Shown here piece after piece: positions 1 to 17,950 of a DNA stretch of 18,720 nt. Within the stretch, counting starts at the first letter, position 1, and each line of letters begins with the position of its first letter. This DNA comes from a virus (lineage: Duplodnaviria; Heunggongvirae; Uroviricota; Caudoviricetes): positions 1 through 18,720 of the IMG/VR virus record IMGVR_UViG_638341086_000012. The stretch is one strand, 5' to 3'. The position numbers were made by a program, and so were the translations under genes. The notes under the pieces were generated by a model. The model made no database searches and was not told the DNA's origin. It saw nothing but the letters and a program-made list of their open reading frames with translations.

Positions 1-141
1 TTACTGCTTACACTGTAAGAACGCCGCAAACTCCGCTCCCCAGAAGCTCATCCGTATTTCACACAGCGAACCGTGCAACATCCAGATGATGAGGATTGCC
101 GTCACGCAGAACGTGATGGCCGTAAGCGATTTTTGCGACAT
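1..141 (-). CDS. hok: Hok/Gef-family type I toxin (small membrane peptide), 46 aa, not in the ORF track because it is under 60 aa
   Basis: Minus-strand ORF from ATG at 141 to TAA at 3-1 translates to MSQKSLTAITFCVTAILIIWMLHGSLCEIRMSFWGAEFAAFLQCKQ. One N-terminal hydrophobic helix plus the SLCE(I/L) and AAF(L/M)xC signature recalled from HokA/Hok/Gef. Match is from memory, not a search. Confidence 0.7.
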   Translation of the reverse strand: MSQKSLTAITFCVTAILIIWMLHGSLCEIRMSFWGAEFAAFLQCKQ

Positions 142-331
142 AGCACTTGCTCCTTTTCCGGAGAGGCGCTAACCTTTCACTTGTCAAGGTAATGCGGTTA
201 GGGCCTCGGTTAAACAGAGATGTTTTCCGGGGCCTTTCCACATCTGGCCTTCGGGTATTCCCTCCGACCATCAGCCGAAAGGCACCCGCGCGTAATCTAT
301 CGCTTTTTTGTTGCTCCGGCAATTCTGCCTG

Positions 332-592
332 TTAATCCTGAGGTAAAGGCAAACTCATCTGATTGTTTCCCCTGTGTGAAGCTGGCAGCTCATGCCACGG
401 GATACCTTCTGAAGAGTGAACGCCGGAGGCGTGTTTCGATGTGAATTTATGGAAAGCTTCCAGTGTTGAGAAGCATACACCGCATTCCAGGTTGTTACAC
501 TGGTAATACTTTTGCCGCACGGTATTTGAATCATTTTCCGGACGACTGGTACGGATGCGGGCAGATGCGCCACAAAGCGGGCAACGGAACAT
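332..592 (-). CDS. ogr: Ogr/Delta-family zinc-finger late-gene transcriptional activator
   Basis: N-terminus MFRCPLCGASARIRTSR...YYQCNNLECGVCF parallels P2 Ogr (MFHCPLCQHAAHARTSR...CQNVNC) with the same four-Cys spacing. Lies downstream of gpD on the same strand, as in P2. Confidence 0.88.
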   Translation of the reverse strand: MFRCPLCGASARIRTSRPENDSNTVRQKYYQCNNLECGVCFSTLEAFHKFTSKHASGVHSSEGIPWHELPASHRGNNQMSLPLPQD

Positions 593-786
593 AGCGACCT
601 CCCTTAACGCAGTGCTGATGTTATTCTAGGTCGTGCTGGCTATAATTCCAACTAACACTTCGTTTTAAGCGAATAGCAGATAGTCGAGTTATCATGTTAT
701 TAGCCAATAAATATACGTGGTAAAAGCTCTTTCTTCGATTTAAAATGTATCTGGATAGTAAATATCTTACGTTAAAGGAAATTGTT

Positions 787-1107
787 ATGGATTTTTTATC
801 TTCGGCGATACTTTCTGGCATAGTTTATGACATGCTTAAACATCATGTTTCGATTACTGCAACTTCAATAAAAGAAAAGTTAAAAAATTGGGTTATTGAT
901 GAGGCTGTAGCCCCTGCTTTAGCTAAAGAGCTTGAAAAACTGTCTTTGAACGATGAAATGAGTGAAATAGCAATTGAAAGAAAACTATTGGATAGTAGTG
1001 AAATTCAAAAAATACTCTCGTCTATAAAACCTCATGCAGCAACTGTCATTATTCAAAACCATAGTGGCACTGGTGATAATATTGGTGGAAATAAAATTAC
1101 GAGGTAG
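787..1107 (+). CDS. Hypothetical small protein (about 106 aa), first gene of the AT-rich cargo operon; no recognisable family
   Basis: ORF-track frame 745..1107. ATG at 787 is preferred because AAGGA at 775-779 sits 7 nt upstream; ATG at 745 has no SD. Very AT-rich relative to flanking phage genes. C-terminal motif IQNHSGTGDNIGGNKI recurs at the N-terminus of the next gene. Confidence 0.5.
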   Translation: MDFLSSAILSGIVYDMLKHHVSITATSIKEKLKNWVIDEAVAPALAKELEKLSLNDEMSEIAIERKLLDSSEIQKILSSIKPHAATVIIQNHSGTGDNIGGNKITR

Positions 1108-1112
1108 TGTCT

Positions 1113-3905
1113 ATGGATAACATTCATAGCTGCAGTTCAATTAGTCAAAATCATACCGGAACAGGCCATAATGTTGCTGGTAACTTAATTATATACAATA
1201 GTGATAATGTTGATTATGCGACTGAGTTAGCGATTGCTGTTTTAGTCGGTTGCTGGGATGAAAAAAATAATGGTGATATTGATATAATTACAAGCCTTAT
1301 TGGCGAGTCATATGACAGTTGGATTCGAAAATTAAGAATAATTGAAGGGATGCAAGATAGTCCTTTGATTCATGAGAGAGGTTCTTGGAGTTTTAAAGAT
1401 AGAATACAATCATTTCAAACGGTATCGTCAAGATTATTCGATGATCATTTGGATTTGTTTCGGACGACTGTTGTATCCGTTTTTAAAACTATCGACCCAC
1501 AATTTGAACTGGCACCTGAAGAGCGTTATGCAGCAGTAATTTATGGGAAGGTTTTACCACACAGCCGATTAATAAGGAAAGGACTATCCGAAGGGTTGGC
1601 ATTAGTTGCAACAAAGCAAGAGTTACTTACTAATTGCTCAAAATATAAAGGGCAATATTGCGCCTCAAGTGTGGTTAAAGAGGTTTTTTCGGCTTCTAGC
1701 TGGCAATTATGGGCTAGTACGCAAGATATTCAAGTTATGCTTGCGGAAAGTGCTCCTGACTGTTTTATCGACGAAGTGGAAAATGCTGCATCTCACCAAG
1801 ACAAGCCATTTGATTCACTTTTTGCACAGGAAGGTATCGGTGGTATTTCAGGTCGGAATTATATGACAGGACTGCTATGGGCTATTGAAGGATTAGCTTG
1901 GGCGCCTAACTATTTATCTCGCTCTTTAGTAATATTAGGGGAGCTGGATAGCCATGATCCTGGTGGCAATTGGGCTAACAGGCCACTTAACTCGATAATC
2001 AACATATTGTTACCATGGCTTCCTCATACTACAGCTGATATAGATAGACGTATTGCTGCTTTCAACGCATTGGCAAGGGAGTGGCCCGATACAGCATGGC
2101 GTGTTTTAGTTCAGTTGCTACCCAACAACACGCAAGTAACATCTGGCACACATATTCCAACTTTTAGAAACTTTATTCCTAACGGTTTTAATAAAAGGCC
2201 ATCGGGTGATGAGTACCGTACTCAGATTGAAATATACACTCAATTAACAATTGAATTGGCAAGTAAATCATCATTAAGACTTGTTGATTTAGTTGAAAAT
2301 ATTGGTAGATTAGCGCCATTTAAATTCGATGATGCAATTAAACTATTGTATGATTTTTCTAAAAAAACAGATAGTGCTGAATTGAAGTTAGCGGTGTGGG
2401 AAAAATGTTTAGAAGTTTATAACAAAAACAAAAGATTCTCAGGTGCTTATTGGGCAATGCAACCAGAACAAAATGAAAAAATCAAAGATGTTTCTACAGT
2501 CTTGAAGCCCGAAAATCCTATGCTTTATAGCAAGCGACTTTTTGCACAAAACAATTACTTCCTATTTGATGAAAATGGAAACTGGCGGGACCAAGAAGAA
2601 AGGTTGACAAAAGAACGAGGGCAATCAATATACGAAATATATGCTATTAATGGTATTGATGGAGTCTTAGAATTCTCTCTATCTATTGAAAGGCCTGAGT
2701 TTGTTGGTAGTAGCCTGGTCGCAGAAGATCTAGAAATTCCTTTAGATATACTGAAAAAACTTATTGTTAGTGATATTAAAAAGGAAAATTCTCTTGCTTC
2801 TGGTTATGTACAGGCTAAAAACTACAGAGAAGGAAAATCATGGGTGTTGACAGTTATTAATGACTGGAGTGCTCAAGAAAAGATTGCTTTTTTTCTTTTG
2901 TTACCGTTTAAAAAAGAAACATGGGATGCATTAAACGCTTCATTTGATGATTTTCCTTTCGAGTATTGGAAAAATACTCTTGTTAATGCATACAGCTGTG
3001 ATTCAACGGAAGAAATTTATTTTGCTATAGACTGCTTGATTAAAGTAGACCGTCCCTTGATGGCAATAGATTGTTTATCTAAAATTTTGCATATCGATAA
3101 TTCAGTTGATAGCAGTAAGGTTGTGCTTGCTCTATTGCAATCAATTAGAACCACAGAAAATATTGAGCGATTTGATATTCACTCATTTAATGAACTTGTG
3201 AATTATATTCAAAATGATAACACTGTTTCAGATGACGACTTAGTAAAGATTGAATGGGCATACCTACCTGTAATTAACAGGGGGGCTAATGATTCGTTGC
3301 ATCCTCAAGTATTAGAGAAAAAACTTGCAAGTGAACCCAGTTTTTTTTGTGAAGTCATTCAATATGCGTATCGATCAGAATTTCAAAAAGCAAGTAAAGA
3401 ACTATCTGAAAGTGAAATAAATATTGCCAAAAACTCACTCTATTTACTTGATGATTGGAAAAAGATTCCGGGTGTTGATGCTGAAGGCAAGTTTGATGTC
3501 AATGCGTTTAATAACTGGTTTGATTTTGTCCAAACAGAATGCGAAAAGTCAGGCCATTTAGATTTTGCTTATCATAGAATTGGAAGCATATTAATTTTTA
3601 GCCCTGCAAATGACGAGCATTGGATACTTCCAGAACTGGCCGAGTTTTTGAATAGACGTGAACTTGATAAAGTGCGTACTGGTTATAAGAATGCGATAAT
3701 AAATTCGCGTGGTGTCTACATTGTTGACCCAGAAGGTAAACCGGAATTGGAGTTGGCCCAACAATATCACACTAAGTCTGATGCAATGGAACTTCTAGGC
3801 TTTCATCGATTTGCCCGAATTCTTCGAGAGTTAGCTCATGAATACCAAGCGGAAGCTGAGTTGATAATAGAACAGCACAGTAAAAAAAAGATTGCTGAGA
3901 TTTAG
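1113..3905 (+). CDS. Large hypothetical protein (about 930 aa), AT-rich cargo; candidate accessory or defence protein of unknown family
   Basis: Uninterrupted 2.8-kb ORF (track 1107..3905; ATG at 1113 preceded by GAGG at 1101-1104). No Walker A, no obvious nuclease motif seen by eye. Sits between gpD and ogr, which are normally adjacent in P2, and on the opposite strand. Confidence 0.75.
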   Translation: MDNIHSCSSISQNHTGTGHNVAGNLIIYNSDNVDYATELAIAVLVGCWDEKNNGDIDIITSLIGESYDSWIRKLRIIEGMQDSPLIHERGSWSFKDRIQSFQTVSSRLFDDHLDLFRTTVVSVFKTIDPQFELAPEERYAAVIYGKVLPHSRLIRKGLSEGLALVATKQELLTNCSKYKGQYCASSVVKEVFSASSWQLWASTQDIQVMLAESAPDCFIDEVENAASHQDKPFDSLFAQEGIGGISGRNYMTGLLWAIEGLAWAPNYLSRSLVILGELDSHDPGGNWANRPLNSIINILLPWLPHTTADIDRRIAAFNALAREWPDTAWRVLVQLLPNNTQVTSGTHIPTFRNFIPNGFNKRPSGDEYRTQIEIYTQLTIELASKSSLRLVDLVENIGRLAPFKFDDAIKLLYDFSKKTDSAELKLAVWEKCLEVYNKNKRFSGAYWAMQPEQNEKIKDVSTVLKPENPMLYSKRLFAQNNYFLFDENGNWRDQEERLTKERGQSIYEIYAINGIDGVLEFSLSIERPEFVGSSLVAEDLEIPLDILKKLIVSDIKKENSLASGYVQAKNYREGKSWVLTVINDWSAQEKIAFFLLLPFKKETWDALNASFDDFPFEYWKNTLVNAYSCDSTEEIYFAIDCLIKVDRPLMAIDCLSKILHIDNSVDSSKVVLALLQSIRTTENIERFDIHSFNELVNYIQNDNTVSDDDLVKIEWAYLPVINRGANDSLHPQVLEKKLASEPSFFCEVIQYAYRSEFQKASKELSESEINIAKNSLYLLDDWKKIPGVDAEGKFDVNAFNNWFDFVQTECEKSGHLDFAYHRIGSILIFSPANDEHWILPELAEFLNRRELDKVRTGYKNAIINSRGVYIVDPEGKPELELAQQYHTKSDAMELLGFHRFARILRELAHEYQAEAELIIEQHSKKKIAEI

Positions 3906-4029
3906 TGTAGTGCTTGTAGTTTCGGAGAAATAAATCTTTGTTTATAAACATTTATAGTAACTACTGACATTGTTGCCGATTATAATTCGTCTTGGTGTAA
4001 GGCGGGTTACACTTGGCCAATCGGTGAAA

Positions 4030-4068
4030 GGCACAGAGCAAAACTCCAATTAGGTTTGCTTCTGTGCC
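4030..4068. terminator. Hairpin in the convergent intergenic region between the cargo operon and gpD; possible bidirectional terminator
   Basis: Inverted repeat GGCACAGAGCAAA (4030-4042) and TTTGCTTCTGTGCC (4055-4068), 13-bp stem with a one-base bulge and 12-nt loop. No strong T-tract on either side. Confidence 0.3.
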
Positions 4069-4115
4069 GTACGTAAGCATGCTAGCCCGTGTCTGAACTA
4101 ATGCATCCCAGTTGC

Positions 4116-5225
4116 TCACTCTGTTTCCGCTATCCATTCCGGGATTTTTGCCTCAAGCTCAAGCTGCGTGGTAAAACCGCTGTTATCAATGGTGTGCTCG
4201 GCTTTTGCAATAATCCAGTCCTGATTATCAATCTCGCTTTTAAATCCTGTTACCGTGCCATGCATTTCGGGGTAGAGTTCTGCACGTCCACGCGCCAGCG
4301 TGATGGAGAATGATGTGGCTCCGCGTTGTAGCTGCTGCCACTTTGCCGCCGCAGCGCGTCTTGCTGCCTGCTCGTTCTGATAAGTCTTGCGTAACACAAA
4401 CACATTTCCTTCCGCGCCTTCCATATAATCACCTTCACGGCTGCTGCTTTTCTCCTTTTTGGGTTTTGGCGGTTTGCGGCGTTTCACGCTGACTTTTTTC
4501 TTTTTCCCGTAATTAAGATCAAGCCAGTAGGCGCGTACCCCCGTATACGCCTCGCGGTCAGCAATACGGAACTGATGGCGATCGCCGCTGCTGCGTGTAA
4601 TGGCGAACGAGGGCAACGGCTGGCCCTGTGCGTTCACGCCACCACCTGGCATGATGAATAACAGATTGCCGCTTTTTACGGTGGTGATTGCGCCCAGCAT
4701 TTCCGCCATGCGCGTAAGAAAGGACATGTCGCTTTCTTCGGTCTGGTCGGCGTGGTCGATTTCGATATCCATCAGCATTTCGCTGATTTGCGGTTTCAGA
4801 CCATACCGATGAGCGATGGCGGATACCACACGCTCAACGGTCACATCATGCCAGGACACCTCACGTTTAACGTTAAATTCATCCCGAAAATCTGCGCTTC
4901 TGGCTGAAACAGTCAGCCTGTCCGGCGGTCCTTCGTGAGCGATTTCATCAACAATGTAAGTGCCTTTTTCTGTCAGCGGTTCTCCTTTCCAGCCAATGAG
5001 AACCGTCAGGCGCGCGCCCCGTGGCGGTAGCTGCAACTGACCATCTGCATCATCCAGCGTGATGGTGAGCTGGTCTGCTTCAAATCCCCGGTTGTCGGTC
5101 AGTGACAGGCTCATCAGGCGCTCTGCCACGCCTGACAGCGTTTTACCCTCCGCGAGAATATCAAAATCCGGCATTTTCACGGGGTCTGTGCCCTGACTGA
5201 GCAATTGCATGGTGGTGTCGGTCAT
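4116..5225 (-). CDS. D: P2 gpD-like late control / tail protein
   Basis: Translation (MPDFDILAEGKTLSGVAERLMSLSLTDNRGFEADQLTITLDDADGQ..., RLTVSARSADFR) matches P2 gpD as recalled. Start placed at ATG 5225 (MTDTTMQ...) because GGGAGGG lies 5-6 nt upstream; the ORF-track start at 5357 is an upstream extension. Confidence 0.88.
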   Translation of the reverse strand: MTDTTMQLLSQGTDPVKMPDFDILAEGKTLSGVAERLMSLSLTDNRGFEADQLTITLDDADGQLQLPPRGARLTVLIGWKGEPLTEKGTYIVDEIAHEGPPDRLTVSARSADFRDEFNVKREVSWHDVTVERVVSAIAHRYGLKPQISEMLMDIEIDHADQTEESDMSFLTRMAEMLGAITTVKSGNLLFIMPGGGVNAQGQPLPSFAITRSSGDRHQFRIADREAYTGVRAYWLDLNYGKKKKVSVKRRKPPKPKKEKSSSREGDYMEGAEGNVFVLRKTYQNEQAARRAAAAKWQQLQRGATSFSITLARGRAELYPEMHGTVTGFKSEIDNQDWIIAKAEHTIDNSGFTTQLELEAKIPEWIAETE

Positions 5226-5382
5226 CTGTTCCCTCCCTGTGCGGCATGGTCGCATGTGCGTGCAGAGGGGGGTACTGCTTTTTGTTGTCGCCGTGGCGGG
5301 AGAATGGCGCAGGAGTGAGATTACACGCGTGGTGGGTGATGATTGTTGCCGAATCATTTAACGGATACAAGGGGCTGAAGCT

Positions 5383-6567
5383 ATGAGTGAAACTCGTTTT
5401 CATGGTGCCCGTGTTACGGAAAATACCGACCTGGTAACAGCGATTAACGATGTTGATTCCAGCGTTATCGGTATCGTGGCAACGGCGGATGATGCGGACG
5501 CGAAGCTGTTCCCGCTGAACAAGCCCACACTGCTGACCCGCGTCAATGACGTGCTGGGAAAATGCGGGACAACGGGGACGCTTTATCGTGCGCTTAAGGC
5601 CATCGCAGACCAGGTGAGCACAAAGGTGATCGTCGTTCGCGTGGCTGAACACAAAGAAGAAGACGGAAAGACGCAGGATCAACTGGTTATCGGTGGTTCT
5701 GAGGATGACGGCAGCTATACGGGGATGTATGCGCTGCTTGTTGCAGAGCAGGATGAAAGCATCGGATACCGTCCGCGTATTCTGGCCGCGCCGGAGCTGG
5801 ACACGGAGGCTGTAACAAAATCCCTGTGCGTGATTGCAGGTAAACTGCGCGCGTTTGTGTATGCCTCATGTCACGGCTGTAACACGATGGCTGAGGCGAG
5901 TACCTACCGCCAGAAATTCAACGAACGTGAGGTGATGCTCTTATGGCCGGACTTCATCGCCTACAACCCAAAAAGTGGCAAAAACGAAACGTTCCCCGCG
6001 CCTGCCTATGCGTGCGGCCTTCGTGCGTACATTGACCATGAGCAGGGCTGGCACAAATCACTGTCCAACGTTCCGGTTAAAAATGTGCTGGGGATGTCGA
6101 GGCATGTGTTCTGGTCGTTGCAGGCCGAAGACAGCGATGCCAACAGCCTCAACAACAAAGAAATCACGACCATTATTCGTCGCAACGGGTTCCGCTTCTG
6201 GGGCAACCGCACACCGGAAACGAACGCCTACATCTTTGAGGTGTATACCCGAACCGCACAGGTGCTGGCTGATTCAATTGCGGAAGCGCAGTTTGAAACC
6301 ATCGACAGTCCACTGACGCCTGCGAACGTGAAGGATGTTATCAGTGCCATCAGGGCAAAACTGGATTCACTGGTTACTGCCGGGAAACTGATTGGCGCGG
6401 AGTGCTGGTATGACGTGGTGGATAACAGCACCACGAATTTATGTCAGGGGCGTGTGCGTATTCGCTACAAATATACGCCTGTTCCCCCGCTGGAAGATAT
6501 GGAGCTTTACCAGACGTTTACTGATGAATACTTTGAACCCGCATTTGCGGTGCTGGGAGGTGCCTGA
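5383..6567 (+). CDS. FI: Contractile tail sheath protein (P2 FI-like)
   Basis: 394-aa product with P2 FI-like blocks (FPLNKP, LRAF, YRQ, WPDF, DQEQGWHKSLSNV, IRRNGFRFWGNRT, YTPVPPLE). AAGGGG SD 8 nt before the ATG. Confidence 0.95.
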   Translation: MSETRFHGARVTENTDLVTAINDVDSSVIGIVATADDADAKLFPLNKPTLLTRVNDVLGKCGTTGTLYRALKAIADQVSTKVIVVRVAEHKEEDGKTQDQLVIGGSEDDGSYTGMYALLVAEQDESIGYRPRILAAPELDTEAVTKSLCVIAGKLRAFVYASCHGCNTMAEASTYRQKFNEREVMLLWPDFIAYNPKSGKNETFPAPAYACGLRAYIDHEQGWHKSLSNVPVKNVLGMSRHVFWSLQAEDSDANSLNNKEITTIIRRNGFRFWGNRTPETNAYIFEVYTRTAQVLADSIAEAQFETIDSPLTPANVKDVISAIRAKLDSLVTAGKLIGAECWYDVVDNSTTNLCQGRVRIRYKYTPVPPLEDMELYQTFTDEYFEPAFAVLGGA

Positions 6568-7079
6568 TGGCTGTGCCAAAACATCTTCGCTTTTTTACGC
6601 TGTTTGTGGATGGTGAAAACGAAGTGGGTAAGGTGACGTCCGTCACTCTGCCTAAGCTGACGCGCAAAACCGACAGCTACCGGGGTGGTGGCATGATGGG
6701 GGCGGTAAGTATTGATCTCGGTCTGGACGACTCCGCGCTTGATGCGAGTTTTGTTATGGGGGGAGCTGTTCGTGCGCTGTTCCTTAAATATGGCGGCACG
6801 ATTGACGGCACGCTGCTGCGTTTTGCGGGTGAATACTACACCGATGCAGAAAGCGATCTGTATGAAATCGAGATGCGCGGACGTGTGACGGAAATTGATA
6901 TGGGGGAAGCCAAACAGGGCGAAGCCACATCACACACTTACGCTGTCAAAAACACCTACTACAAGCTGAGCGTTAACGATCGCCCGCTGTGGGAAATCGA
7001 CCTGTTGAACCACATCTACCGGAAGGACGGCAAGGACATTGTGCCTGACCGTATCCGTTCCGCGCTTGGGCTTGGCTGA
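6567..7079 (+). CDS. FII: Tail tube protein (P2 FII-like)
   Basis: 170 aa; TLPKLTRKTDSYRGGGMMGAVSIDLG matches the P2 FII N-terminus. Start overlaps the FI stop (TGATG), and GGGAGG lies 8 nt upstream. Confidence 0.95.
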   Translation: MAVPKHLRFFTLFVDGENEVGKVTSVTLPKLTRKTDSYRGGGMMGAVSIDLGLDDSALDASFVMGGAVRALFLKYGGTIDGTLLRFAGEYYTDAESDLYEIEMRGRVTEIDMGEAKQGEATSHTYAVKNTYYKLSVNDRPLWEIDLLNHIYRKDGKDIVPDRIRSALGLG

Positions 7080-7134
7080 TAAGTAATATGCAGGCGGCGC
7101 AGTGCGTCGCCTCTGACTGAAAAGGAGACAACTG

Positions 7135-7509
7135 ATGAAAGACATCGATACTGAAACCCGGAATAACACCGTGGCGGATGATGTGACGGCAGGTGAGGAT
7201 ATGGCTGTCGAACGTGGCGTAAAACTGACCCGACCAATTGAGCGTGGTGGCGAAAAAATCACGTATGTGGAGATCACCGGGGCTATTGAACAGGCTGGAT
7301 CCCTGCGTGGTCTGTCGCTGTCTGATGTGCTGAATCTGAAAGCGGATACCATGTTCATGCTGTTGCCTCGCGTGACCTCGCCACGACTGGATGAAGTGAT
7401 GATTAAAAAAATGTCGTCACGCGATTTTATTCAGTTGTGCGCTGTGGCTGTAAATTTTATGAGCGAGCCAGACTCTGGCGCGAAGAGCGTGCAGGAGACG
7501 GCAGCGTAA
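7135..7509 (+). CDS. E: Tail assembly chaperone gpE-like (upstream frame of the E/E' pair)
   Basis: Position between tube and tape-measure genes; AAGGAG SD 7 nt upstream of ATG 7135; a -1 frame ORF overlaps its 3' end, as in P2 E/E' and lambda G/GT. Confidence 0.8.
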   Translation: MKDIDTETRNNTVADDVTAGEDMAVERGVKLTRPIERGGEKITYVEITGAIEQAGSLRGLSLSDVLNLKADTMFMLLPRVTSPRLDEVMIKKMSSRDFIQLCAVAVNFMSEPDSGAKSVQETAA

Positions 7510-7673
7510 TCACCCTAGTGTGCTTTGAGCACATCGAAGATCTGGTGGCAGATATCGCCGCCATTTTTAACTGGTCGCCCGCCGAAATCTTCATGATGAC
7601 GCCCGGCGAAGTGGTTAGCTGGCGTGAGCGGGCGGCACTTCGCAGCGGGAATGCAGACAATGAAGACTCTTGA
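7135..7673 (+). CDS. E+E': gpE+E' fusion made by programmed -1 ribosomal frameshift (coordinates span both frames)
   Basis: The -1 frame is open from 7407 to the stop at 7671-7673 and encodes ...HIEDLVADIAAIFNWSPAEIFMMTPGEVVSWRERAALRSG. Candidate slippery sites in the overlap are the A7 run at 7405-7411 and A AAT TTT at 7452-7458. Confidence 0.65.
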
Positions 7674-10467
7674 TATCCGGGTCGCTTTCAGCGCCGTTGA
7701 CAGGCTGACCCGGCCTGCCGAAAACGCCCGCCGCCTGATGGGGCAGTTTGGTGACTCCATCCAGCGAACGCAGGGGGCGATCAAAAATCTCGAGCGTCAG
7801 GCGCGTTCATTTGAGCGCGCCCGTGACGCTGTCAGTAAAGCGGATGCGGGCATCGTGAAAGCACGACGCCAGCTTAACGCCCTTAATCAGTTACAACGCA
7901 CGGGTACAGTGCTCAGCGAAAAACAACAAAAGCTGATGCAGCAGTTAAGCACCCGGCTTGAACGCCTGAATGAATCGCGCACACGGGAAATTCAGAAAAT
8001 GCGGGAGCTTGGCGGAGAACTGAAACGCCACGGCATTTCCCTGACAGGCAGCGATAACACCATTCAGCAGGCCATCAGACGCACCGAACAATACAACAAC
8101 CAGCTTGAACGCGAACGGCAGGCGCTTGCGCGTGTAACGCAGGCGCGTGAGCGGTATTCGCGCGCGCAGGAAACAGCGGGAAAACTGAAAACAGGTGGTG
8201 CGCTGGCAATTGGTGCGGCAGCGGCGGGCGGCTATGCTGCCGGGCGTTTTTTGCAGCCTGCGATCGGGTTCGGCAAAGAGATGTCCCGCGTTCAGGCACT
8301 GACGCGAATCGACAAAAACAGCCCGCAGTTTAAGGCGCTGCGTGAGCAGGCGTTAAAACTTGGCTCTGAAACACAGTTTACTGCGAGTGATGCCGCCAGT
8401 GGGCAGAGCTTTCTGGCAATGGCTGGTTTTACTCCGCAGGCCATTCAGGCCGCATTGCCCGGTGTTCTTAATATGGCGCTGGCAGGCGGCGTCGAACTCG
8501 GCGAGACGGCTGATATAGGCTCCAATATCCTCACACAGTTCAACCTGACAGCCGATCAAATGGACCGGGTGGGCGATACGCTGACAGCAGCATTTACCCG
8601 GACCAATACTGATTTACGCGCGCTGGGCGAAACCATGAAGTATACCGGTCCGGTTGCCGCAAAACTTGGTATCAGTCTTGAAGAAGCGGCGGCCATGGCC
8701 GGGATGCTTGCCAATAATGGTCTTCGCGGAAGCGATGCTGGCACGGCCATGCGCGCAAGTCTGTCCCGCCTTGCATCACCGCCAAAAGCTGCGGCTGATG
8801 CACTGAAAGAGCTGGGGGTGTCAGTTGCTGACGCCAGAGGCAAAATGCGCCCGATGGAGGATGTGCTGCTTGATCTCTATAAGGCGACACAAAAATACGG
8901 ACAGGTGGACCAGGTCTCCTTCTTCAAGGACATCGCCGGAGAAGAGGCGTTCGTTGGTTTGCAGACGCTTGTTGCGGCGGCTGGTTCAGGAGAGCTGCAA
9001 AAACTGACCAGAGAATTGCAGGGGGCAAGGGGAGAGGCCGATCGCGTTGCAAAAGTAATGGCCGATAATCTTGATGGGGACCTGAAAAATCTCGACAGCG
9101 CATGGGAAGGTCTTCGTATTCGCATCAGTGATCTGGTTGACGGTCCGCTGCGTTCTGTCACGCAGTGGCTCACGCGGATGCTTGAAAAAATCACCTCGCT
9201 GGCGCAGGCCCATCCGGTACTGACGCGCCAGCTACTGATAGCAGGCGGTGCGTTGCTGGCAATGACTGCAACGATTGGCTCGTTGTCGCTGGTTATTGGG
9301 GTGCTTTACGGGAAGCTGGCCACCTTGCGTATTGGTTTTGACATTCTTACCCGGTCAATGAATGTCGTCAGGGTGTTGCCTGCGCTATGGGGAATGGTGA
9401 CGGGTTCCGTTTCTTTACTGGGAGGCGCTATCGGGGCGTTGTTCAGTCCGGTTGGTCTTGTCGTTGCTGCGCTTGCCGGAGCTGCCGTTCTTATCTGGAA
9501 ATACTGGGATCCCATCAGGGCATTTTTTGCCGGGGTGTTCAGCGGGATTATGGAAAGGCTGACCCCGTTGCGCGAAACCTTTGAACGGTTTGGTCCTGTT
9601 TTTGACGCAATCGGAAGCGGGATCAGCCAGGTGTTTAACTGGTTTAAATCGCTGCTGTCACCGATGGAGTCCAGCAAGGAAACGCTGGATAAATGTACCA
9701 GTGCTGGCGAGATATTCGGTAACGTTCTTGGTGGAGCGTTACAGCTTGTTCTGACGCCTGCAAAAATGTTGCTGGATACGCTGGCGTGGATACTTGAAAA
9801 ACTCGGTGTGCTTCCGGATGAAGCGGAAAGGGCGCGCAAGAAAATCGAAGACGCACAGCGTGCGGCCATTCTTCAGGACAAGGTTGCTCTGTTTCAGGGA
9901 GACATTGCGAAAATCAATCCGCCAAAGCCTGTAGAAAATGGCAATGGCACCGGAGGTGATAAACCCAAAGACAATAAACCGCTCACAGACAGCAATATCG
10001 GTACGCTGCGCAGACTAAGCAAAATTGCTGATAACACAGGTAAGCTGGTTGATGAGACGAAAAAACGCATTGGCCCCGGCGATATTGTCTTTAAGAACCT
10101 GCCCCGCGCACTTGCTGTTCGTGGGGAGTGGCAGGAGCGGAAGATTGCGCAGGTCAGTAAGCCTGCCCCCGCAATTAATATCACCCCCGTGGTTCCGGCT
10201 CCGCTGCCTCCGGCGCTGGTCCCTGTTGTTGCGGCCAGCACCCGCCCGGTGGCGGAGGCCATACGATCACCAGTAGCATCAGTGCCTGCAACTTCCCGTA
10301 ACCGGGAGCCTGTTGCCTCCGGATTTGGTGGTGAAATTCATGTTCATCTGCATAACGTTGTTACGCAGAATCCCCACGAACTGGCGAAACTGGTCGGTGA
10401 AATGGTCAGGGCAGAAATGGAACGGCGCGCCCGTGCCGGGCGTGGCAGTTTTTACGATAAAGATTGA
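7660..10467 (+). CDS. T: Tail tape measure protein (P2 gpT-like)
   Basis: About 935 aa, coiled-coil-rich N-terminal part, central hydrophobic glycine-rich segments, Pro/Ala-rich C-terminal part; immediately follows E/E'. Start uncertain: ATG 7651 or 7660 (ORF-track frame opens at 7624). Confidence 0.9.
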   Translation: MKTLDIRVAFSAVDRLTRPAENARRLMGQFGDSIQRTQGAIKNLERQARSFERARDAVSKADAGIVKARRQLNALNQLQRTGTVLSEKQQKLMQQLSTRLERLNESRTREIQKMRELGGELKRHGISLTGSDNTIQQAIRRTEQYNNQLERERQALARVTQARERYSRAQETAGKLKTGGALAIGAAAAGGYAAGRFLQPAIGFGKEMSRVQALTRIDKNSPQFKALREQALKLGSETQFTASDAASGQSFLAMAGFTPQAIQAALPGVLNMALAGGVELGETADIGSNILTQFNLTADQMDRVGDTLTAAFTRTNTDLRALGETMKYTGPVAAKLGISLEEAAAMAGMLANNGLRGSDAGTAMRASLSRLASPPKAAADALKELGVSVADARGKMRPMEDVLLDLYKATQKYGQVDQVSFFKDIAGEEAFVGLQTLVAAAGSGELQKLTRELQGARGEADRVAKVMADNLDGDLKNLDSAWEGLRIRISDLVDGPLRSVTQWLTRMLEKITSLAQAHPVLTRQLLIAGGALLAMTATIGSLSLVIGVLYGKLATLRIGFDILTRSMNVVRVLPALWGMVTGSVSLLGGAIGALFSPVGLVVAALAGAAVLIWKYWDPIRAFFAGVFSGIMERLTPLRETFERFGPVFDAIGSGISQVFNWFKSLLSPMESSKETLDKCTSAGEIFGNVLGGALQLVLTPAKMLLDTLAWILEKLGVLPDEAERARKKIEDAQRAAILQDKVALFQGDIAKINPPKPVENGNGTGGDKPKDNKPLTDSNIGTLRRLSKIADNTGKLVDETKKRIGPGDIVFKNLPRALAVRGEWQERKIAQVSKPAPAINITPVVPAPLPPALVPVVAASTRPVAEAIRSPVASVPATSRNREPVASGFGGEIHVHLHNVVTQNPHELAKLVGEMVRAEMERRARAGRGSFYDKD

Positions 10468-10479
10468 GGAGTCATGGCC

Positions 10480-10968
10480 ATGATGATGATCTACGGCATG
10501 TTTGTTTTTGAGCTGCGTACGTTGCCGCATCAGCAGTTACAGCAAAACAAAAGCTGGCGGCATGTGAAAAATGAACGCGTTAACCGTTCAGCAAGCTGGC
10601 AGTATATCGGTGCAGGTGATGATCGCATCGTTCTTTCTGGTGTGCTTTATCCTGAAATTACAGGTGGTGAAGTGTCGCTGTCGCTGCTGACCACGCAGGC
10701 GTATACAGGACGCCCCTGGCCTCTGATTGATGGCGTCGGGCAGATTTACGGCATGTATGTCCTGACCGGAACGAATACGACCCGTTCCGAGTTTGATCGC
10801 TACGGTAAGGCGAAAAAGATAGAATTTTCACTGACTCTTGAACGCTGTGATGAGGATTTGCGGGAGCGCCTGCAATCCTCATCGTTCAGCGATATGTTGT
10901 CCGGCTTCAAAGATAAGGTGACATCATCCCTTAATAGTGCGGCCAGCTCAGTTAAGGGGCTGCTCTGA
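10480..10968 (+). CDS. U: Tail protein gpU-like
   Basis: MMMIYGMFVFELRTLPHQQLQQ...WRHVKNERVNR parallels P2 gpU (MMMVLGLFVFMLRT...). GAGGAG at 10466-10471 favours ATG 10480 over the ORF-track ATG 10474. Confidence 0.9.
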   Translation: MMMIYGMFVFELRTLPHQQLQQNKSWRHVKNERVNRSASWQYIGAGDDRIVLSGVLYPEITGGEVSLSLLTTQAYTGRPWPLIDGVGQIYGMYVLTGTNTTRSEFDRYGKAKKIEFSLTLERCDEDLRERLQSSSFSDMLSGFKDKVTSSLNSAASSVKGLL

Positions 10969-11044
10969 TTTAACGTATGTCGCCAATTTCCTGATGAAGG
11001 TGACTGGCGACTTGCTGTTGTATGTCCTTCTCAGAAAATTGTTT

Positions 11045-11073
11045 TTGAATAACAAATAACAGGATTTTATAAT
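11045..11073 (+). promoter_or_regulatory. Near-consensus sigma70-type promoter for the acetyltransferase cargo gene
   Basis: TTGAAT (11045-11050), 17-bp spacer, TATAAT (11068-11073); then AAGGAG (11113-11118) and GTG start at 11125. Confidence 0.5.
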
Positions 11074-11124
11074 CTCTTAACCTTATAACATGTGTGGTCT
11101 GAAATAATAATTAAGGAGATTTTC

Positions 11125-11697
11125 GTGCTGTCTTACTTAATGGCAATTCACTTTGTTTTATTTGGGAAGTCTACTAATTTAAAAAACTTCTGGAAACATG
11201 AAGTAATTCGGCGAAAACGTATGGATATCTGGAGGCTTTTAAGAGAGAAAAAGCAGCGTAACCGGAATTTCCTTTTCTGGTGGCGGTTGGCTAACGAAAT
11301 GTATATTAATGGTAATAAATTACATAAGAAAGCAGCCAAAAAGTTAAACAGTAAAATAATTAACAAATTTGGTTGTGAAATAGGATTGGGAGCAAATATT
11401 GGAAAAGGGTTAACAATTCCCCATCATGCTGGAATTGTTGTTCATTTTGCTGTTGATGCGGGTGAAAATCTGGTATTACGACAGAATACTACCATTGGAC
11501 AGATAGATGGTGACATGCCTGGTTCAAGAGTGAAAATTGGTAGTAACGTTGATATCGGAGCTAATTGTTGCATCATTGGATTGTCACGTAAAATTGGGGA
11601 TAATGTAAAAATAGGTGCAATGTCTTTTATAAATAAAGATATACCATCAAACTGCACATATATAACTAAAAAGAGTGGTGTTGTATTGTATAAATAG
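11125..11697 (+). CDS. Hexapeptide-repeat (left-handed beta-helix) acyl/acetyltransferase, CysE/WcaB/LacA-like; AT-rich cargo gene
   Basis: Repeated [LIV]-G-x-x-x-x hexapeptide pattern (IGLGANIGKGLTIPHHAGIVV, KIGSNVDIGANCCIIG, KIGDNVKIGAMSFI). Strongly AT-rich versus neighbours. ORF-track frame opens at 11092; GTG 11125 is chosen for its SD. Confidence 0.75.
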   Translation: MLSYLMAIHFVLFGKSTNLKNFWKHEVIRRKRMDIWRLLREKKQRNRNFLFWWRLANEMYINGNKLHKKAAKKLNSKIINKFGCEIGLGANIGKGLTIPHHAGIVVHFAVDAGENLVLRQNTTIGQIDGDMPGSRVKIGSNVDIGANCCIIGLSRKIGDNVKIGAMSFINKDIPSNCTYITKKSGVVLYK

Positions 11698-11704
11698 AGT
11701 ACAT

Positions 11705-11745
11705 AAAGCCATCGATATTTCTGTCGATGGCTTTTTCTTTTTATT
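11705..11745 (+). terminator. Rho-independent terminator after the acetyltransferase gene; the same hairpin lies just past the stop of gene G on the other strand
   Basis: Perfect 11-bp stem AAAGCCATCGA (11705-11715) / TCGATGGCTTT (11724-11734), 8-nt loop, followed by TTTTTCTTTTTATT on the plus strand. Confidence 0.65.
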
Positions 11746-12325
11746 GTGGGGCGACTGGCCACTCAACATCCGCTGCTACTGTTGTATCAACACGATTCAA
11801 CAATACCCGATATGTCTTCCATGCAGCCAGTAACGATGCCTCTTCCTCCGTCGCAATATCCAAATCTACGGCATCCTGAAGTGGCGCAATATGCTCACTG
11901 GCTACCTGCATCAGGCTGTTTTTTGTTTCTTCTGCCTCCTGTACCCGAAACAGTTTTTCTGCTTCTGCATCTTTCACCCAGGATGTGCCGTTCCACTTCT
12001 GACACTCTCCATCCGGCGACAACCAGGTAACATTTTCCGGTAACGGACCGAGTTCAGAAATAAATAACGCGTCCCCTGATGCCACGTCATAAACAGTTTT
12101 ACCCCGATGGTCTTCAACGAGATGCCACGATGCCTCATCACTGTTGAAAACAGCCACGAAGCCAGCCGGAATATCTGGTGGTGCAATATCGGTACTGTTT
12201 GCAGGCAGACCTGTATGAGGTGGAATGTATGCATCACCTTCCCCAATAAATTCATTAGTTCCGGTCAGCAGGTTATAAATTTTTATGGTCCGTGATTGTT
12301 CACTCATTCTGAAATCCATGTTCAC
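11741..12325 (-). CDS. G: Tail fibre assembly protein / chaperone (gpG/Tfa family)
   Basis: C-terminus ...[34 protein letters not shown] is the conserved Tfa C-terminal signature as recalled; about 190 aa. GTG at 12325 or ATG at 12319. Confidence 0.85.
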
Positions 12326-12327
12326 CT

Positions 12328-13230
12328 CTACTTAATATCAGAGACAGAATATTGTTTATTGAGCGTATGGGTAGGAGTACCAATAACGATGCTACTTCCG
12401 TGGCTATGTGCGCCAGAGGTGACATTACCTACGGGATTTTCTGGATTAATCCGGTGTATATGCGAACCAGGGCGAAAACGGTTATTAGCCTGATGTTGTA
12501 TCAGTACATCATCAGCCTGATGTTCAGGGTTAATACAGATTTGCCCGGAACGAGAGCAACACGTCCGATAATCGCCGCATCCAATATATTTAGTATCCGC
12601 ATAACGGCAAACGGAATTACCCGGACAGTATGCATATGTGCCAAATACTGCCGACTGGCGAGATTGTGCGTATTCCCAGTTAATTGATTCTGTTTTTTTA
12701 TTAAAGTTATCCCATGCCTGCTTCATCTGTCGGGCAACACTTTCAAACGGCACCTGACCACATCCGGCCCCCATTGCAGGGAATACCACTGTTTTTATTT
12801 TCATGTCTGTCGTTGCGTTTTTATTGTGCTGAAAGATGGCAAGCAGAGCGGCCCAGGTTGCGTTATATACAGCGTCTGTTCCGTCAATTGTCAACGGAAC
12901 ACGCATTGTTGGCGCATGTACCAGCCAGGGGTGATGATTATGCCCCGTTTCAATGACAAATGCAGAACCTACAGGCTGTTCGCCGAGATATTCACGAAGA
13001 ATATGATTCTGAACGCGGGACTGTAACTGAGTACCGAAGAATGCGGTAATGGCGGCATCAACGCCACCATCCATCAGGCCGAAACTATTTGCCGCACTTA
13101 CCATGCAGTCAAATTCTCTGATTGTTTCAAATGGCTTTCCGACAATATTCACACTATCTGCATTTGCAAATACCTGCTTAAATGCTTCAGCCATTTCTGT
13201 TACTGGTGCAGAAAGAATGAGCGTAATCAT
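12328..13230 (-). CDS. Macro-domain (ADP-ribose-binding / hydrolase fold) protein with a Cys/His-rich C-terminal extension, inserted between H and G
   Basis: Macro-domain motif blocks seen by eye: [60 protein letters not shown]-terminal 120 aa contain CPGNSVC...[16 protein letters not shown] and His-rich [11 protein letters not shown] overlaps the H stop (ATGA at 13227-13230); GAGG SD 5 nt upstream; stop 3 nt before the G start. Confidence 0.8.
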
Positions 13231-15053
13231 GCAAGCCTCACAATATAGTTAAATGCGATGTTTTTTACGGTGTTTTCTGCGTTACCCGTAGCGTTAACGG
13301 TGATGGTATGCCCGTGTGAACCTATCGCAACGGAGTGTGTGTGTGCGCCAATTCCTACCGTATGAGTGTGTGCGCCAATATTTACTGTGTGAGAGTGCCC
13401 CCCTGCGTTACTTGTTTTTCCAGTGCCAAGTCCTGAGTTATAACCAGCCGAAACACCATTACCTGCGCCAGTGTTGCCAACAGGAATATTGTGTGAATGA
13501 TCCCCGGCGCTATTCGTGGTTTTAGTGCCATGGTTAAATGAACTGGACGTCTTGGTGCCGTAGTCAAATGATGATGTGGTTTTTGTCCCCAAGTCCGTAC
13601 TGGACGCGCTGGCACTGTGGGAGTGTGATTTAATGCCGTCCTGTTCCTGAGATAATACGGCCCGACCACTGGCGGGTTTGCCCTTAATCGTCCAGCCACG
13701 CATATCAGGGATCACACCAGACGGATAAGCGACTGCAAGCAGGGGATAGACTGTTTTATCAAAAGTCTGCCCCTGCATAACGGTATAGCCTGTAGGCACT
13801 GAATCAGAAGGCCACGGTATCGCCGCACCTACCGGAAATGAATCTTGTGGCGTCCATGGTGTCCAGTCACCCGTTGAGTACTGGCTGCGGGTATAGCTTC
13901 TGGATGTGTCATACACATAGTAAATCTGTGTTATCCCGGCATTTTTAAGCACAACCAGTGTACCCGCAAAATTCTCCGGGTATTTCAGCGCTGCGCTTGT
14001 ATTGGCATTCAATGGCTGATGGTACAGCCCCGGTGTTTTGTAATTATCCAGATTCTGATTTGCACCAATCTCAATACTCTGGTCGTTAAAAATATCCTGC
14101 GATGTAACATTGACATCATTGGCTAGTGATTTGCCATTAACCTTACGTCCAGAGGGCACACGCCCGTTTGCATTGTCATTAGCGGCTTTCACCGCTTTCG
14201 GAGTCGCGGCAAGCGTTTCAGAATCACTGTTAGTGACGCTACTGAGCTGGACTATTCCTTTTCGTGCCGTCGTGGCGTCCTGTGCGGTATATTTCCCGTT
14301 AGCAAGGTCATAGGCTGCCTTTACCGCCTTTGGTGTTGCCGCCAGCGTTTCTGAATCGCTGTTGGTGGCGCTACTGAGCTGGGCTATTCCTTTTTGTGCC
14401 GTCGTGGCATCCTGAGCGGTATATTTCCCGTTAGCAAGGTCATAGGCTGTCTTGACCGCTTTCGGCGTTGCGGCCAGTGCTTCAGACGTGCTGTTAGTGG
14501 CGCTACTGAGTTGAACAAAGCCTTTTGCGGTCAGCGAGGCGTCCGGGTGACGTCGTGACTGTTCATGTTCTTTCAGTTTGTCATTCACGTAATCCACTGT
14601 GGCCATCACCATGGTGTTATCCACGGTAAGCGCCACGGTGGCAGTGCTGGATACGGTCAGAATGGTGCGAAATGTTTGTGCACGTCCGGACCCCTCGGCA
14701 ACGGTTGGTTTGTAACTTTCGGCAGTATTGCCCACCGCGATTAAATCGCCGTGCTCATCAAATACACCAATTTCCCGGATCCAGAATCCACCCGTTTCAG
14801 GAGGAATAACCAGCTCCGCAATAATGCGGTTCTGATGTGTTGCGTCCAGGATGACGCGATTAACAGTATGTCGCCACACCTCATGCACCAGACGGGTCTG
14901 CTTACTGTCTGGTGTGGGCAACGTGCCGCCACCGTCGCCCACGGCCATGTGAGTCAGGCGGACAGGATTACCATCTGGCGCGGCTGCCTGAGCTAATTTT
15001 TTGGCACCAGTATCAGTGATAATGGTTTTAAATTTACGTGTTGTGGTACTCAT
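13227..15053 (-). CDS. H: Tail fibre protein (P2 gpH-like)
   Basis: N-terminus [26 protein letters not shown]...MAVGDGGG...HEVWRH...[10 protein letters not shown] matches P2 gpH; internal [36 protein letters not shown] repeats; C-terminal HxH-rich tip ([33 protein letters not shown]) ending [11 protein letters not shown]. Confidence 0.95.
14160..14528 (-). repeat. About 2.8 tandem copies of a 132-bp (44-aa) coding repeat inside tail fibre gene H
   Basis: DNA segment containing ...ggtatatttcccgttagcaaggtcataggctg... recurs with a 132-bp offset (14286 vs 14418). Encodes KG(F/I)[40 protein letters not shown](Q/R). Confidence 0.85.
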
Positions 15054-15055
15054 GC

Positions 15056-15586
15056 TTAATCGTCCGGATAAATGGTAATGACTTCACCGTCGTAAGTTGC
15101 TGCCGCCGCGAAAATATCCCCCGGGATCTCCTGAATGATATTCAGCCCTGTCATGTGGCGGCTGACCGGGCGGGCATCAGCAATCAACCGCTCCATTTCC
15201 AGATACATTTCCTCCGTCACGCCACTGTCCAGCGTGCCGACTTCAACGGTAAATGTTCCCGGTTCTCCGCCGAACTCCCACCACTCAGACACACGAATGA
15301 GGTATCCCAGCGGCTCAATGGCCCGGCGCAGTGCGCTGATGGTCCCTTTGTGTCGGTGTATCAGCCATGCATCACGAATCACCTGTCGCTTTGTCTCTTC
15401 CGGCCAGTTGCGATCCCAGCGGTCAACGGAAAATGCCCAGGCGAGATAAGGCAGCAGATGCACCGGGCAGGTGTCCGGCGACCACAGCGTGTTGAGGTCT
15501 ACCGGAATGTCTGTAATGCGCGTTCCGACAGCTTCGGCACAACGCATGAAATTGCTGGCTGATGGCGGTAACAGTGAATTACTCAT
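15056..15586 (-). CDS. I: Baseplate assembly protein gpI-like
   Basis: [20 protein letters not shown]...[14 protein letters not shown]...[19 protein letters not shown] matches P2 gpI. ATG 15586 (176 aa, overlapping the J 3' end) fits the P2 gpI N-terminus; ORF-track start 15619 is an extension. Confidence 0.9.
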
Positions 15587-16475
15587 TACGCCCACCTTCG
15601 CTGATGGTGAATGACTCACAGCGCGCCGCCTGTATGTCGCTGATGGCCATATTTTGTGTGGGTTCGATTATCTCCACGCGTTGCACACCGTGCACATGCA
15701 GTGCGGCAGCAATGGCTGACAACGCCACGTCCTGACCGATAAGCCCCTGCTCAGACAGCCACTTCCTGAACGACGATTCCGCCGCGGCCAGAATAGGTTC
15801 GGATTCCGGGCCGGGGTAAAAGTACAGTTTTGCATTCAGCCGCCATGTCACGATTCTGGCACTCTGTACGGTCAAGCGGTCGGCCACCGGGCGGGTATCC
15901 TCTGCATTCAGAACGGCGCGAACGGTATTAAGCAACGCCTCCGTTGCCGTGCCGTCGCCCTCAGTGGACAGGATGGAAACCGTCACGTTGGCCGGAGACG
16001 GGCTGATGGCCCGCGCATCGCGTACCAGACCGCTGGCGCTGCGGGCAAAATACTCGTATGCACCTGACGGGCCAGCAACACTCAGACCGTCATATGCCCG
16101 TTGCGCCCGTAGTCTCAGCGAGGTGTCACTTTCCATCACTGCGTCGGTGGTATCCGTTGCCGGAGTGATAACCAGGCGCTTTGTGTTCATATTGCCCGCG
16201 AGGTTGTCCAGGTCTGTCCCGGCGCTGTGGCTTAGCATGCAGGCGCGTGCACCCTCATTGACCCGCTGGCGTAACAGCATTTCACGAAAAGACATGGTTT
16301 GAGCGATAACGTTCAGGGGTTCCGATTCCAGCTCCAGCGCGGCGGAGACGGCTTCACGCTGTTCGGCAGGATAGGACGCAATCATCATGGCCTTTGTGTC
16401 AGCCAGAATTGCCTCAAAATCAGGCTCCGCGATGATGGCGGGTTCCGGTAACTGGGAAAGGTCAACAGCAGGCAT
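15579..16475 (-). CDS. J: Baseplate assembly protein gpJ-like
   Basis: 298-aa product in the conserved position between W and I, with gpJ-like sequence; SD-like GAGAGAG upstream of ATG 16475. Confidence 0.9.
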   Translation of the reverse strand: MPAVDLSQLPEPAIIAEPDFEAILADTKAMMIASYPAEQREAVSAALELESEPLNVIAQTMSFREMLLRQRVNEGARACMLSHSAGTDLDNLAGNMNTKRLVITPATDTTDAVMESDTSLRLRAQRAYDGLSVAGPSGAYEYFARSASGLVRDARAISPSPANVTVSILSTEGDGTATEALLNTVRAVLNAEDTRPVADRLTVQSARIVTWRLNAKLYFYPGPESEPILAAAESSFRKWLSEQGLIGQDVALSAIAAALHVHGVQRVEIIEPTQNMAISDIQAARCESFTISEGGRNE

Positions 16476-16478
16476 GAT

Positions 16479-17900
<1,422 letters not shown>

Positions 17901-17950
17901 CCACTACAAGGTGCTTAAGAGTGAAGTTTCATTTAGATGAACTTAAAAGA

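Follow-up and report, generated by a model that had tools for sequence, protein, structure and literature searches.

Bab/Agp of Escherichia coli ECOR25 is an abortive-infection system described in 2024 (10.1101/2024.11.07.622273). Bab, a Bell-type effector of 109 residues, begins with a hydrophobic helix and ends with the motif called BASS11; the BASS11 peptides of Bab and Agp each form amyloid fibrils, and the system acts by homotypic amyloid templating. The two proteins are toxic when co-expressed and not when expressed separately, and defence is lost with the beta-breakers Bab N100P and Agp N12P or with the helix mutation G11K. Mutations at Bab D2, G11, Y14 and D15 inactivate the protein, those at Q92, D99 and N100 remove foci or defence, and a heterologous HET-S/R0 motif pair has replaced both Bab/Agp motifs in experiment (10.1101/2024.11.07.622273). 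GAPS6, found in Vibrio GMT islands, is a pair of the same type that protected E. coli against phages, and its second component has TPR and PINc domains (10.1101/2023.03.28.534373). The subject of this analysis is an adjacent gene pair at positions 787 to 3,905 of the Caudoviricetes record IMGVR_UViG_638341086_000012 in IMG/VR, of which the stretch from 1 to 18,720 (18,720 nucleotides, hereafter the window) was examined. Its 106-residue Bab-like effector and 930-residue predicted sensor carry the same short motif, and they probably constitute a two-component abortive-infection cassette, borne as cargo by a P2-like prophage, in which the sensor signals to the effector by amyloid templating through that motif.

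The window pair resembles Bab/Agp (GAPS6a/GAPS6b) in its small protein, which is homologous to Bab and matches it in length, N-terminal helix and critical residues; in a BASS11-type motif placed C-terminally in the effector and N-terminally in the product of the neighbouring large gene; and in gene order, tight coupling and carriage on a prophage or mobile element. It differs in its large protein, which is unrelated to Agp/GapS6b and has no TPR-GreA/B-C-PIN region, so that the RNA-polymerase-sensing logic proposed for Agp is not transferable, and in a sensor motif that reads GHN instead of GDN. As judged by sequence, the pair shares its motif, effector and signalling logic with Bab/Agp; the sensor scaffold is new, as is a second connector-effector pair within the same sensor family.

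The Bell/NLR BASS1-10 pairs (Dyrka et al. 2020), fungal HET-S/NWD2 and other HeLo/Hell-NLR pairs have the same effector-receptor architecture as the window pair, namely a membrane-targeting helical effector with a C-terminal amyloid motif of about 20-25 residues and an adjacent receptor with an N-terminal copy. Their motifs, like that of the window, are rich in N, Q, G, V and I and have no proline. On the receptor side they have STAND NTPases of the NB-ARC or NACHT kind, which carry TPR or WD repeats and oligomerise when ligand binds, whereas the window receptor is a predicted alpha-solenoid; because it has no STAND NTPase, it falls outside the Bell/NLR class. The hosts also differ, a unicellular enterobacterium against filamentous bacteria or fungi. 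As described by Kaur et al. (2021, eLife 10:e70394, PMC8195603), TPR-GreA/B-C-PIN (TGP) conflict systems have a constant region with swappable N-terminal effectors, and the window sensor family is similar in that a constant, fast-evolving C-terminal sensor follows an N-terminal slot, which in TGP proteins holds SIR2, TIR, PNPase, nucleases, HetE-N or an adaptor. The constant region of the window sensor has no sequence or domain similarity to that of TGP proteins, and no description of the window sensor family was found in the searchable text of that article. RHIM necroptosis of animals (RIPK1/RIPK3) likewise uses a short common amyloid motif to link an upstream sensor or adaptor to a death effector pathway, but its motif core is G-phi-Q-phi-G, its partners are kinases, no motif-bearing protein is a direct membrane effector, and there is no homology. 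When the literature was searched for subsequent studies of BASS11, HetE-N or the sensor family, the 2024 preprint alone was found.

Effector, shared motif and sensor

The small gene (787-1107, + strand) runs from an ATG at 787 to a TAG at 1105-1107, and a Shine-Dalgarno sequence, AAGGAA, lies 7 nt ahead of the start. The Pfam model PF20701 (HetE-N) covers the full protein (E 7e-39; 132.7 bits against a cut-off of 25), the NCBIfam model NF047935 (antiphage GapS6a) matches it with an E of 3e-40 (136.6 bits; cut-off 90), and residues 1-83 match PDB entry 9H9V ('Babybass', the crystallised globular domain of Bab; E 9e-18). The N-terminal hydrophobic helix (MDFLSSAILSGIVYDMLKHH; 787-846, +), predicted to line a pore or to insert into a membrane, retains all four residues at which mutation inactivates Bab (D2, G11, Y14 and D15), and its L9, S10, G11 and Y14 show no variation among 41 homologues. 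The protein ends in TVIIQNHSGTGDNIGGNKITR (residues 86-106; 1042-1104, +), in which Q90, D97 and N98 are spaced like Bab Q92, D99 and N100. On these matches the small protein is a Bab/GapS6a homologue, predicted to be a membrane-targeting cell-death effector of the HetE-N, Bell type, and its C-terminal amyloid-signalling motif, with the functionally critical residues conserved, is assigned to the BASS11 type.

The RefSeq name of the small gene is gapS6a. Both the HetE-N and the GapS6a models span the amyloid motif, as seen together with the RefSeq annotation of NZ_CP050998.1, and the label 'gapS6a' therefore appears even where the neighbour is not GapS6b. For annotation this means that a gapS6a call alone does not identify a GAPS6 system, and the neighbouring gene needs checking.

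The large gene (1113-3905, +; 930 residues) opens with MDNIHSCSSISQNHTGTGHNVAGNLIIY and carries its own BASS11-type motif at residues 8-28 (SSISQNHTGTGHNVAGNLIIY; 1134-1196, +). The 15-residue cores of the two motifs, QNHSGTGDNIGGNKI at 1054-1098 in the small open reading frame (ORF) and QNHTGTGHNVAGNLI at 1146-1190 in the large one, are identical at 10 of 15 residues and 32 of 45 bases (71% DNA identity), with different codons for 6 of the 10 conserved residues and identity at 8 of 15 third positions. Aligned without gaps, the last 30 residues of the small protein and the first 40 of the large protein reach a BLOSUM62 score of 69 at best, against 19.9 +/- 3.9 for composition-preserving shuffles (maximum 43; 0 of 3000 reach 69; z = 12.4). 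A first-pass annotation of this DNA had reported that the motif occurs twice, in the adjacent small and large ORFs; the sequences are as it gave them, and both cores lie inside the span it reported.

Among 41 homologues of the small protein, the motif is the best-conserved segment, with a mean pairwise identity of 0.78 against 0.59 for residues 21-85, and Q90, H92, G94, D97, N98 and G100 do not vary. On the sensor side, G18 and N20 are without variation among 30 homologues, and the motif is kept across dozens of homologues of both genes. Its composition, rich in N, Q, G, I and V and free of proline, is that of BASS motifs. The first-pass annotation had also argued for selection on the protein over a recent slip of the DNA, and this view gained support: the motif appears to be held by selection at the protein level, because the DNA has diverged and the motif is present in both partners of every pair examined, down to 42% sensor identity.

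The large protein belongs to a family that is uncharacterised and predicted to sense phage. It matched no Pfam, PADLOC or NCBIfam family model, its PHROGs assignment is phrog_18693 (function unknown; E 3e-104), and literature searches found no description of the family. The AlphaFold2 monomer model is almost entirely helical and lacks a P-loop alpha/beta core; residues from about 35 to 930 (1215-3902, +) form a predicted HEAT/ARM-like alpha-solenoid, which is the constant core of the family, and residues 1-25 have a predicted local distance difference test score (pLDDT) below 50, leaving the motif disordered. A word-indexed search retrieved at least 568 close homologues aligned over 95-100% of the query, and an exhaustive profile search retrieved 6070 cluster-50 representatives at E <= 1e-3, 3241 of them at E <= 1e-30.

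A divergent Agp/GapS6b was considered for the large protein and rejected, as BLASTP aligns the 15-residue motif only. It matches neither NF047936 nor PF20698 at E <= 1; true Agp-type partners of Bab-like genes, from metagenomes and plasmids, hit PF20698 and reach 270-1185 bits on NF047936. Residues 7-24 match the tail of the GapS6a profile NF047935 (positions 86-103) weakly, with an E of 0.59, and that profile evidently includes the motif.

Across the family, a core of about 890 residues, all alpha-helical, is constant and the region before it varies. A census of about 270 of the roughly 6,000 family representatives distinguished at least 15 types of N-terminal module, including SIR2 (PADLOC pAgo-associated SIR2, E 6e-122), an LmuA-like Cap4 nuclease (E 3e-32), TIR_2, SLFN_AlbA_2, PNP_UDP_1, GT4-conflict, Metallophos, FRG, SMEK_N, DUF4062, DUF4145, an HTH-containing module and a very common unnamed domain of about 290 residues. 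In the window sensor, as in its gammaproteobacterial subclade (41-100% identity), this slot holds only an N/G/Q-rich motif of about 25 residues, which is present in 45 of 48 family members with a short N-terminus. Since known defence effectors occupy the slot in relatives, the motif sits where an effector would be expected. The effector repertoire of the family and its mobile-element context suggest an anti-phage function for the sensor.

The commonest N-terminal domain in the family, that of about 290 residues (P0045-P0119, L005, L009, L010, L024 and others), has an invariant STGGGGxxFE...TDD...QIKH pattern. This 'STGGGGxHFE' domain has no match in Pfam, PADLOC, NCBIfam or PDB, and an hhalign comparison with the LmuA-like N-terminus was negative; the alpha-beta-beta-beta-alpha-beta topology of its AlphaFold2 model suggests a PD-(D/E)xK nuclease, an assignment unconfirmed by library matches. 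In one sensor subclade a separate upstream ORF of 212 residues (L008:638-1276, L013:282-920 and L019:3361-4002) ends in the first 30 or so residues of the sensor core (…LFIASILGGWDDNSQGDNEII…), apparently dividing the core between two overlapping ORFs. The recurrence of this division in at least three taxa suggests a real split or a conserved frameshift.

The motif across paired loci

At all 11 distinct BASS11-type loci with readable upstream DNA, which span 42-100% sensor identity, a Bab-like gene lies directly upstream of a sensor with a short N-terminus and carries a matching C-terminal motif. The first-pass annotation had named homologues with the motif missing from one partner as evidence that would speak against it, and none was found among these pairs. 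The matching extends to variants of the motif: both genes of a pair in a phage-like contig carry GVGDNIGRDK, and at some loci an effector GRDK is paired with a sensor ARDM. On plasmids, the motifs of GAPS6 pairs drift in step, NITANGGGDAFYGDK occurring with NITSNGSGDAFNGDK and TGHNVY with KGHNVF.

Loci from Vibrio cyclitrophicus, Moritella viscosa and a relative known from a metagenome carry a different motif. The sensor N-terminus reads ...QSQNVGDNSTALQVGDNAQITL..., with the motif QNVGDNSTALQVGDNAQITL, and the upstream gene encodes a different protein of 64-68 residues with one transmembrane helix and the tail ...QKVGNNSSANQFGDNANVTI. The consensus of this second motif, which is apparently unclassified, is about Q-x-V/I-G-D/N-N-S-x-A-x-Q-x-G-D-N-A-x-I/V. 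Such wholesale replacement in both partners, as it appears from these loci, is the strongest evidence that the motifs behave as a pair.

The genes for the 64-68-residue proteins (L025:3835-4029, L122:915-1109 and L123:1233-1439) lie upstream of the sensor homologues P0034, P0036 and P0041 and overlap the sensor gene by 29-38 nt at each of these loci. The transmembrane protein belongs to no Pfam, PADLOC, NCBIfam or PHROG family.

The motif heads three unrelated types of partner of Bab-like genes, GapS6b/TGP proteins, a NACHT protein and the window sensor family, and is the sole region common to them; the NACHT protein follows a Bab-like gene at locus L121 and has only the motif in common with the window sensor. 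The first-pass annotation had held that its reading would suffer if the motif turned up in unrelated proteins. It does occur in TPR-GreA/B-C-PIN and NACHT proteins, but in the cases examined always beside a Bab-like gene with a matching motif, and an occurrence of this kind speaks for a function of the motif. No flanking gene family is common to any two of 12 loci, several of which have short flanks; within that limit the two-gene pair looks like a self-contained unit across prophage, phage-like and chromosomal settings.

A sensor G-H-N facing an effector G-D-N is found in nearly all pairs of the window sensor's family and in one Agp-like pair, and G-D-N is found on both sides in other GAPS6 and NACHT pairs. 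This asymmetry might favour hetero-templating over self-templating.

Proposed mechanism and alternatives

In the proposed mechanism, the 930-residue alpha-solenoid sensor would recognise an infection cue, and its disordered N-terminal motif of about 21 residues would be its signalling end. The 106-residue executioner would be a Bab-type helical bundle that hides its N-terminal hydrophobic helix and has a C-terminal copy of the motif. Upon infection, several copies of the sensor would be gathered and their motifs would nucleate a cross-beta (amyloid) fold, which would template the matching C-terminal motif of the small protein. Conversion of this tail would free the N-terminal helix to damage the membrane, and the cell would die before the phage cycle is completed. 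The repeated motif would thus be an element of homotypic recognition and templating between sensor and effector.

Support established here consists of the homology of the effector to Bab, the type of the motif, its position in the effector slot of the sensor, and its paired conservation and replacement. Amyloid formation, oligomerisation and triggering of the sensor, membrane attack and anti-phage activity would be expected of the window cassette from homology and architecture, and for the steps from the infection cue to nucleation we infer the order given above.

Several points weigh against this mechanism. No NTPase or other recognisable oligomerisation domain was found in the sensor by Pfam search or in the AlphaFold2 model, which leaves the route to motif proximity unexplained. 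The effector motif reads G-D-N and the sensor motif G-H-N with one fewer glycine, so cross-templating between them is a supposition. Own-partner motifs score 55.7 against 48.4 for non-partners over 13 pairs, 10 from the window sensor family and three from TGP/NACHT systems (permutation p = 5e-5; related loci not independent), and this excess, modest and confounded by shared ancestry, is weak, supporting evidence only. PADLOC (2023) has no model for either window protein, and the Bab/Agp work that serves as the closest precedent is a preprint.

Of the alternatives, a non-amyloid docking tag survives best, although it is unlikely. The tails would then pair, for example by beta-strand augmentation, in a constitutive soluble complex of sensor and effector that restrains the toxic small protein, in the manner of a toxin-antitoxin system, until infection sets it free. 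Paired conservation and replacement fit any homotypic interaction, a sensor with no obvious oligomerisation domain is in keeping with such a complex, and the tight coupling of the genes, with a 5-nt spacer and a Shine-Dalgarno sequence within the upstream gene, suits stoichiometric assembly. Against it, the homologous BASS11 is a templating motif from which fibrils and transmissible foci arise, and the N/Q/G/I/V-rich, proline-free composition fits BASS motifs. Bab and Agp are moreover toxic only on co-expression, the reverse of what would be seen if the large protein were an antitoxin.

It is very unlikely that the two proteins use their motifs to bind a single further factor of host or phage origin instead of each other. 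In favour of this reading, both proteins might bind one ligand through the short peptide conserved in them, and the invariant Q, H, G and D/H-N positions could be contact residues. A binding partner common to both proteins was also one of the two explanations offered by the first-pass annotation, and it was not supported in that form: the motif co-varies or is replaced in both partners, and 12 prophage, phage-like and chromosomal loci, several with short flanks, have no third gene in common around the pair. Where the motifs are swapped for unrelated sequences, a third partner would need to change in step in each host, and the Bab/Agp experiments show direct conversion of motif by motif. The evidence points to two motifs that recognise each other.

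The other explanation offered there, a split descendant of one longer repeat-containing gene, belongs with a reading that has marginally less in its favour still and is highly improbable, in which the locus is a single gene recently split or recoded, as a frameshifted pseudogene or through a programmed frameshift or read-through, to yield a product with two tandem repeats. The two ORFs do lie in different frames, the TAG stop being followed by a spacer of only 5 nt (1108-1112), and a fusion would give two tandem repeats in the manner of HET-s, whose prion domain has two repeats in tandem. A recent split, frameshift or read-through is nevertheless unlikely, because no fused member was found and spacers and frames vary: a phmmer search with residues 1-85 detected a fused Bab-like globular domain in 0 of about 380 large family proteins, and the distance between the two genes at homologous loci lies between -38 and +100 nt, with all three relative frames represented. 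Both ORFs start at an ATG behind a Shine-Dalgarno sequence of their own; that of the sensor gene is GAGG (1101-1104, +), inside the end of the small gene, and translational coupling of the two genes is probable from this arrangement. In length and fold, the small protein matches Bab as it occurs on its own. The comparison of homologues that the first-pass annotation had called for found the genes separate from 100% down to 42% sensor identity and fused in none. An ancient fission of an effector-sensor fusion is possible, because direct fusions of HetE-N to some TGP proteins are reported by Kaur et al.

The idea that the match is a chance similarity of low-complexity Gly/Asn-rich stretches, made easier by the G-, N- and T-rich composition of the motif, or a recent local duplication, is already refuted, because the shuffles never came near the observed score and the codons of the two copies have diverged, and the motif is conserved in dozens of homologues of both genes.

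Prophage setting and wider meaning

In a degraded P2-like prophage, the pair occupies a cargo island that separates ogr from gpD and is low in G+C (620-4000; 34-43%, the flanks having 51-59%). The remnant keeps only tail and late-control genes; the head, lysis, replication and integrase genes are absent and the defence cassette is intact. Of 5426 complete E. coli genomes, 6 contain an identical locus; one of them is F8704-2, in which it is annotated (the large gene as hypothetical in RefSeq) and the P2-like remnant is inserted between ihfA and btuC. A nucleotide search of E. coli genomes with the small gene returned only the same six loci, Bab paralogues being too diverged. IMG/VR contigs carry the same cassette and close relatives lie on Buttiauxella and Photobacterium plasmids; neither window protein was found in GenBank phage records. 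Promoter and terminator scans of 560-4200 gave sites no more numerous than in shuffles, and Rfam had no match in or near the two-gene cassette. The V. cyclitrophicus cassette stands directly beside pheT/pheS (L025:7031-10420) and the E. coli element just after pheS-pheT-ihfA (L001:4409-8098), and this proximity may reflect a shared integration neighbourhood or coincidence.

Elsewhere in the window, a Hok/Gef toxin gene adjoins ogr at the left edge (1-141, -). A second cargo gene of low G+C content (34%; 11092-11697, +) lies between gpU and the gene for tail-fibre assembly; its product is a hexapeptide-repeat (serine) acetyltransferase. A 300-residue Macro-domain protein (PF01661, E 1e-18; 12328-13230, -) is encoded between the tail-fibre assembly and tail-fibre genes and overlaps the latter, a place where ADP-ribose-binding or hydrolase domains are not usually found. 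Rfam matches above the gathering score are IS009 (194 bits; 11778-11976, -), within the tail-fibre assembly gene, and the Hfq-binding small RNA isrC (150 bits; 16719-16841, +), near the prophage end. IS3-family orfA/orfB (16687-17900, +) lie near the right end.

Amyloid templating as a bacterial immune signal has been demonstrated once so far, in Bab/Agp. The window locus places the same effector and connector on an unrelated sensor without an NTPase, and the question arises what would set off an amyloid nucleus when no STAND-type engine of oligomerisation is present. The sensor family is very large and matches no model in Pfam, PADLOC or NCBIfam; its N-terminal repertoire (SIR2, TIR, LmuA-like nuclease, Schlafen, PNPase, GT4 and others) makes it a probable defence sensor family, absent from the defence and family libraries searched. 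The motif swap in Vibrio and Moritella provides a natural comparison of specificity between matched and mismatched connectors. A broader proposal, which we hold tentatively and at slightly less than an even chance, is that the core of about 890 residues marks out a large family, so far undescribed, of phage sensors that work without an NTPase and drive many effectors by induced proximity, with amyloid motifs as interchangeable connectors acquired at least twice, once as the BASS11/Bab-type pair and once as the second motif with its 64-residue single-pass membrane protein. If so, bacterial amyloid signalling would not be tied to NLRs or TGP proteins and would represent a general and portable split between effector and sensor, and the minimal effector of 64 residues would be the smallest amyloid-gated killer known.

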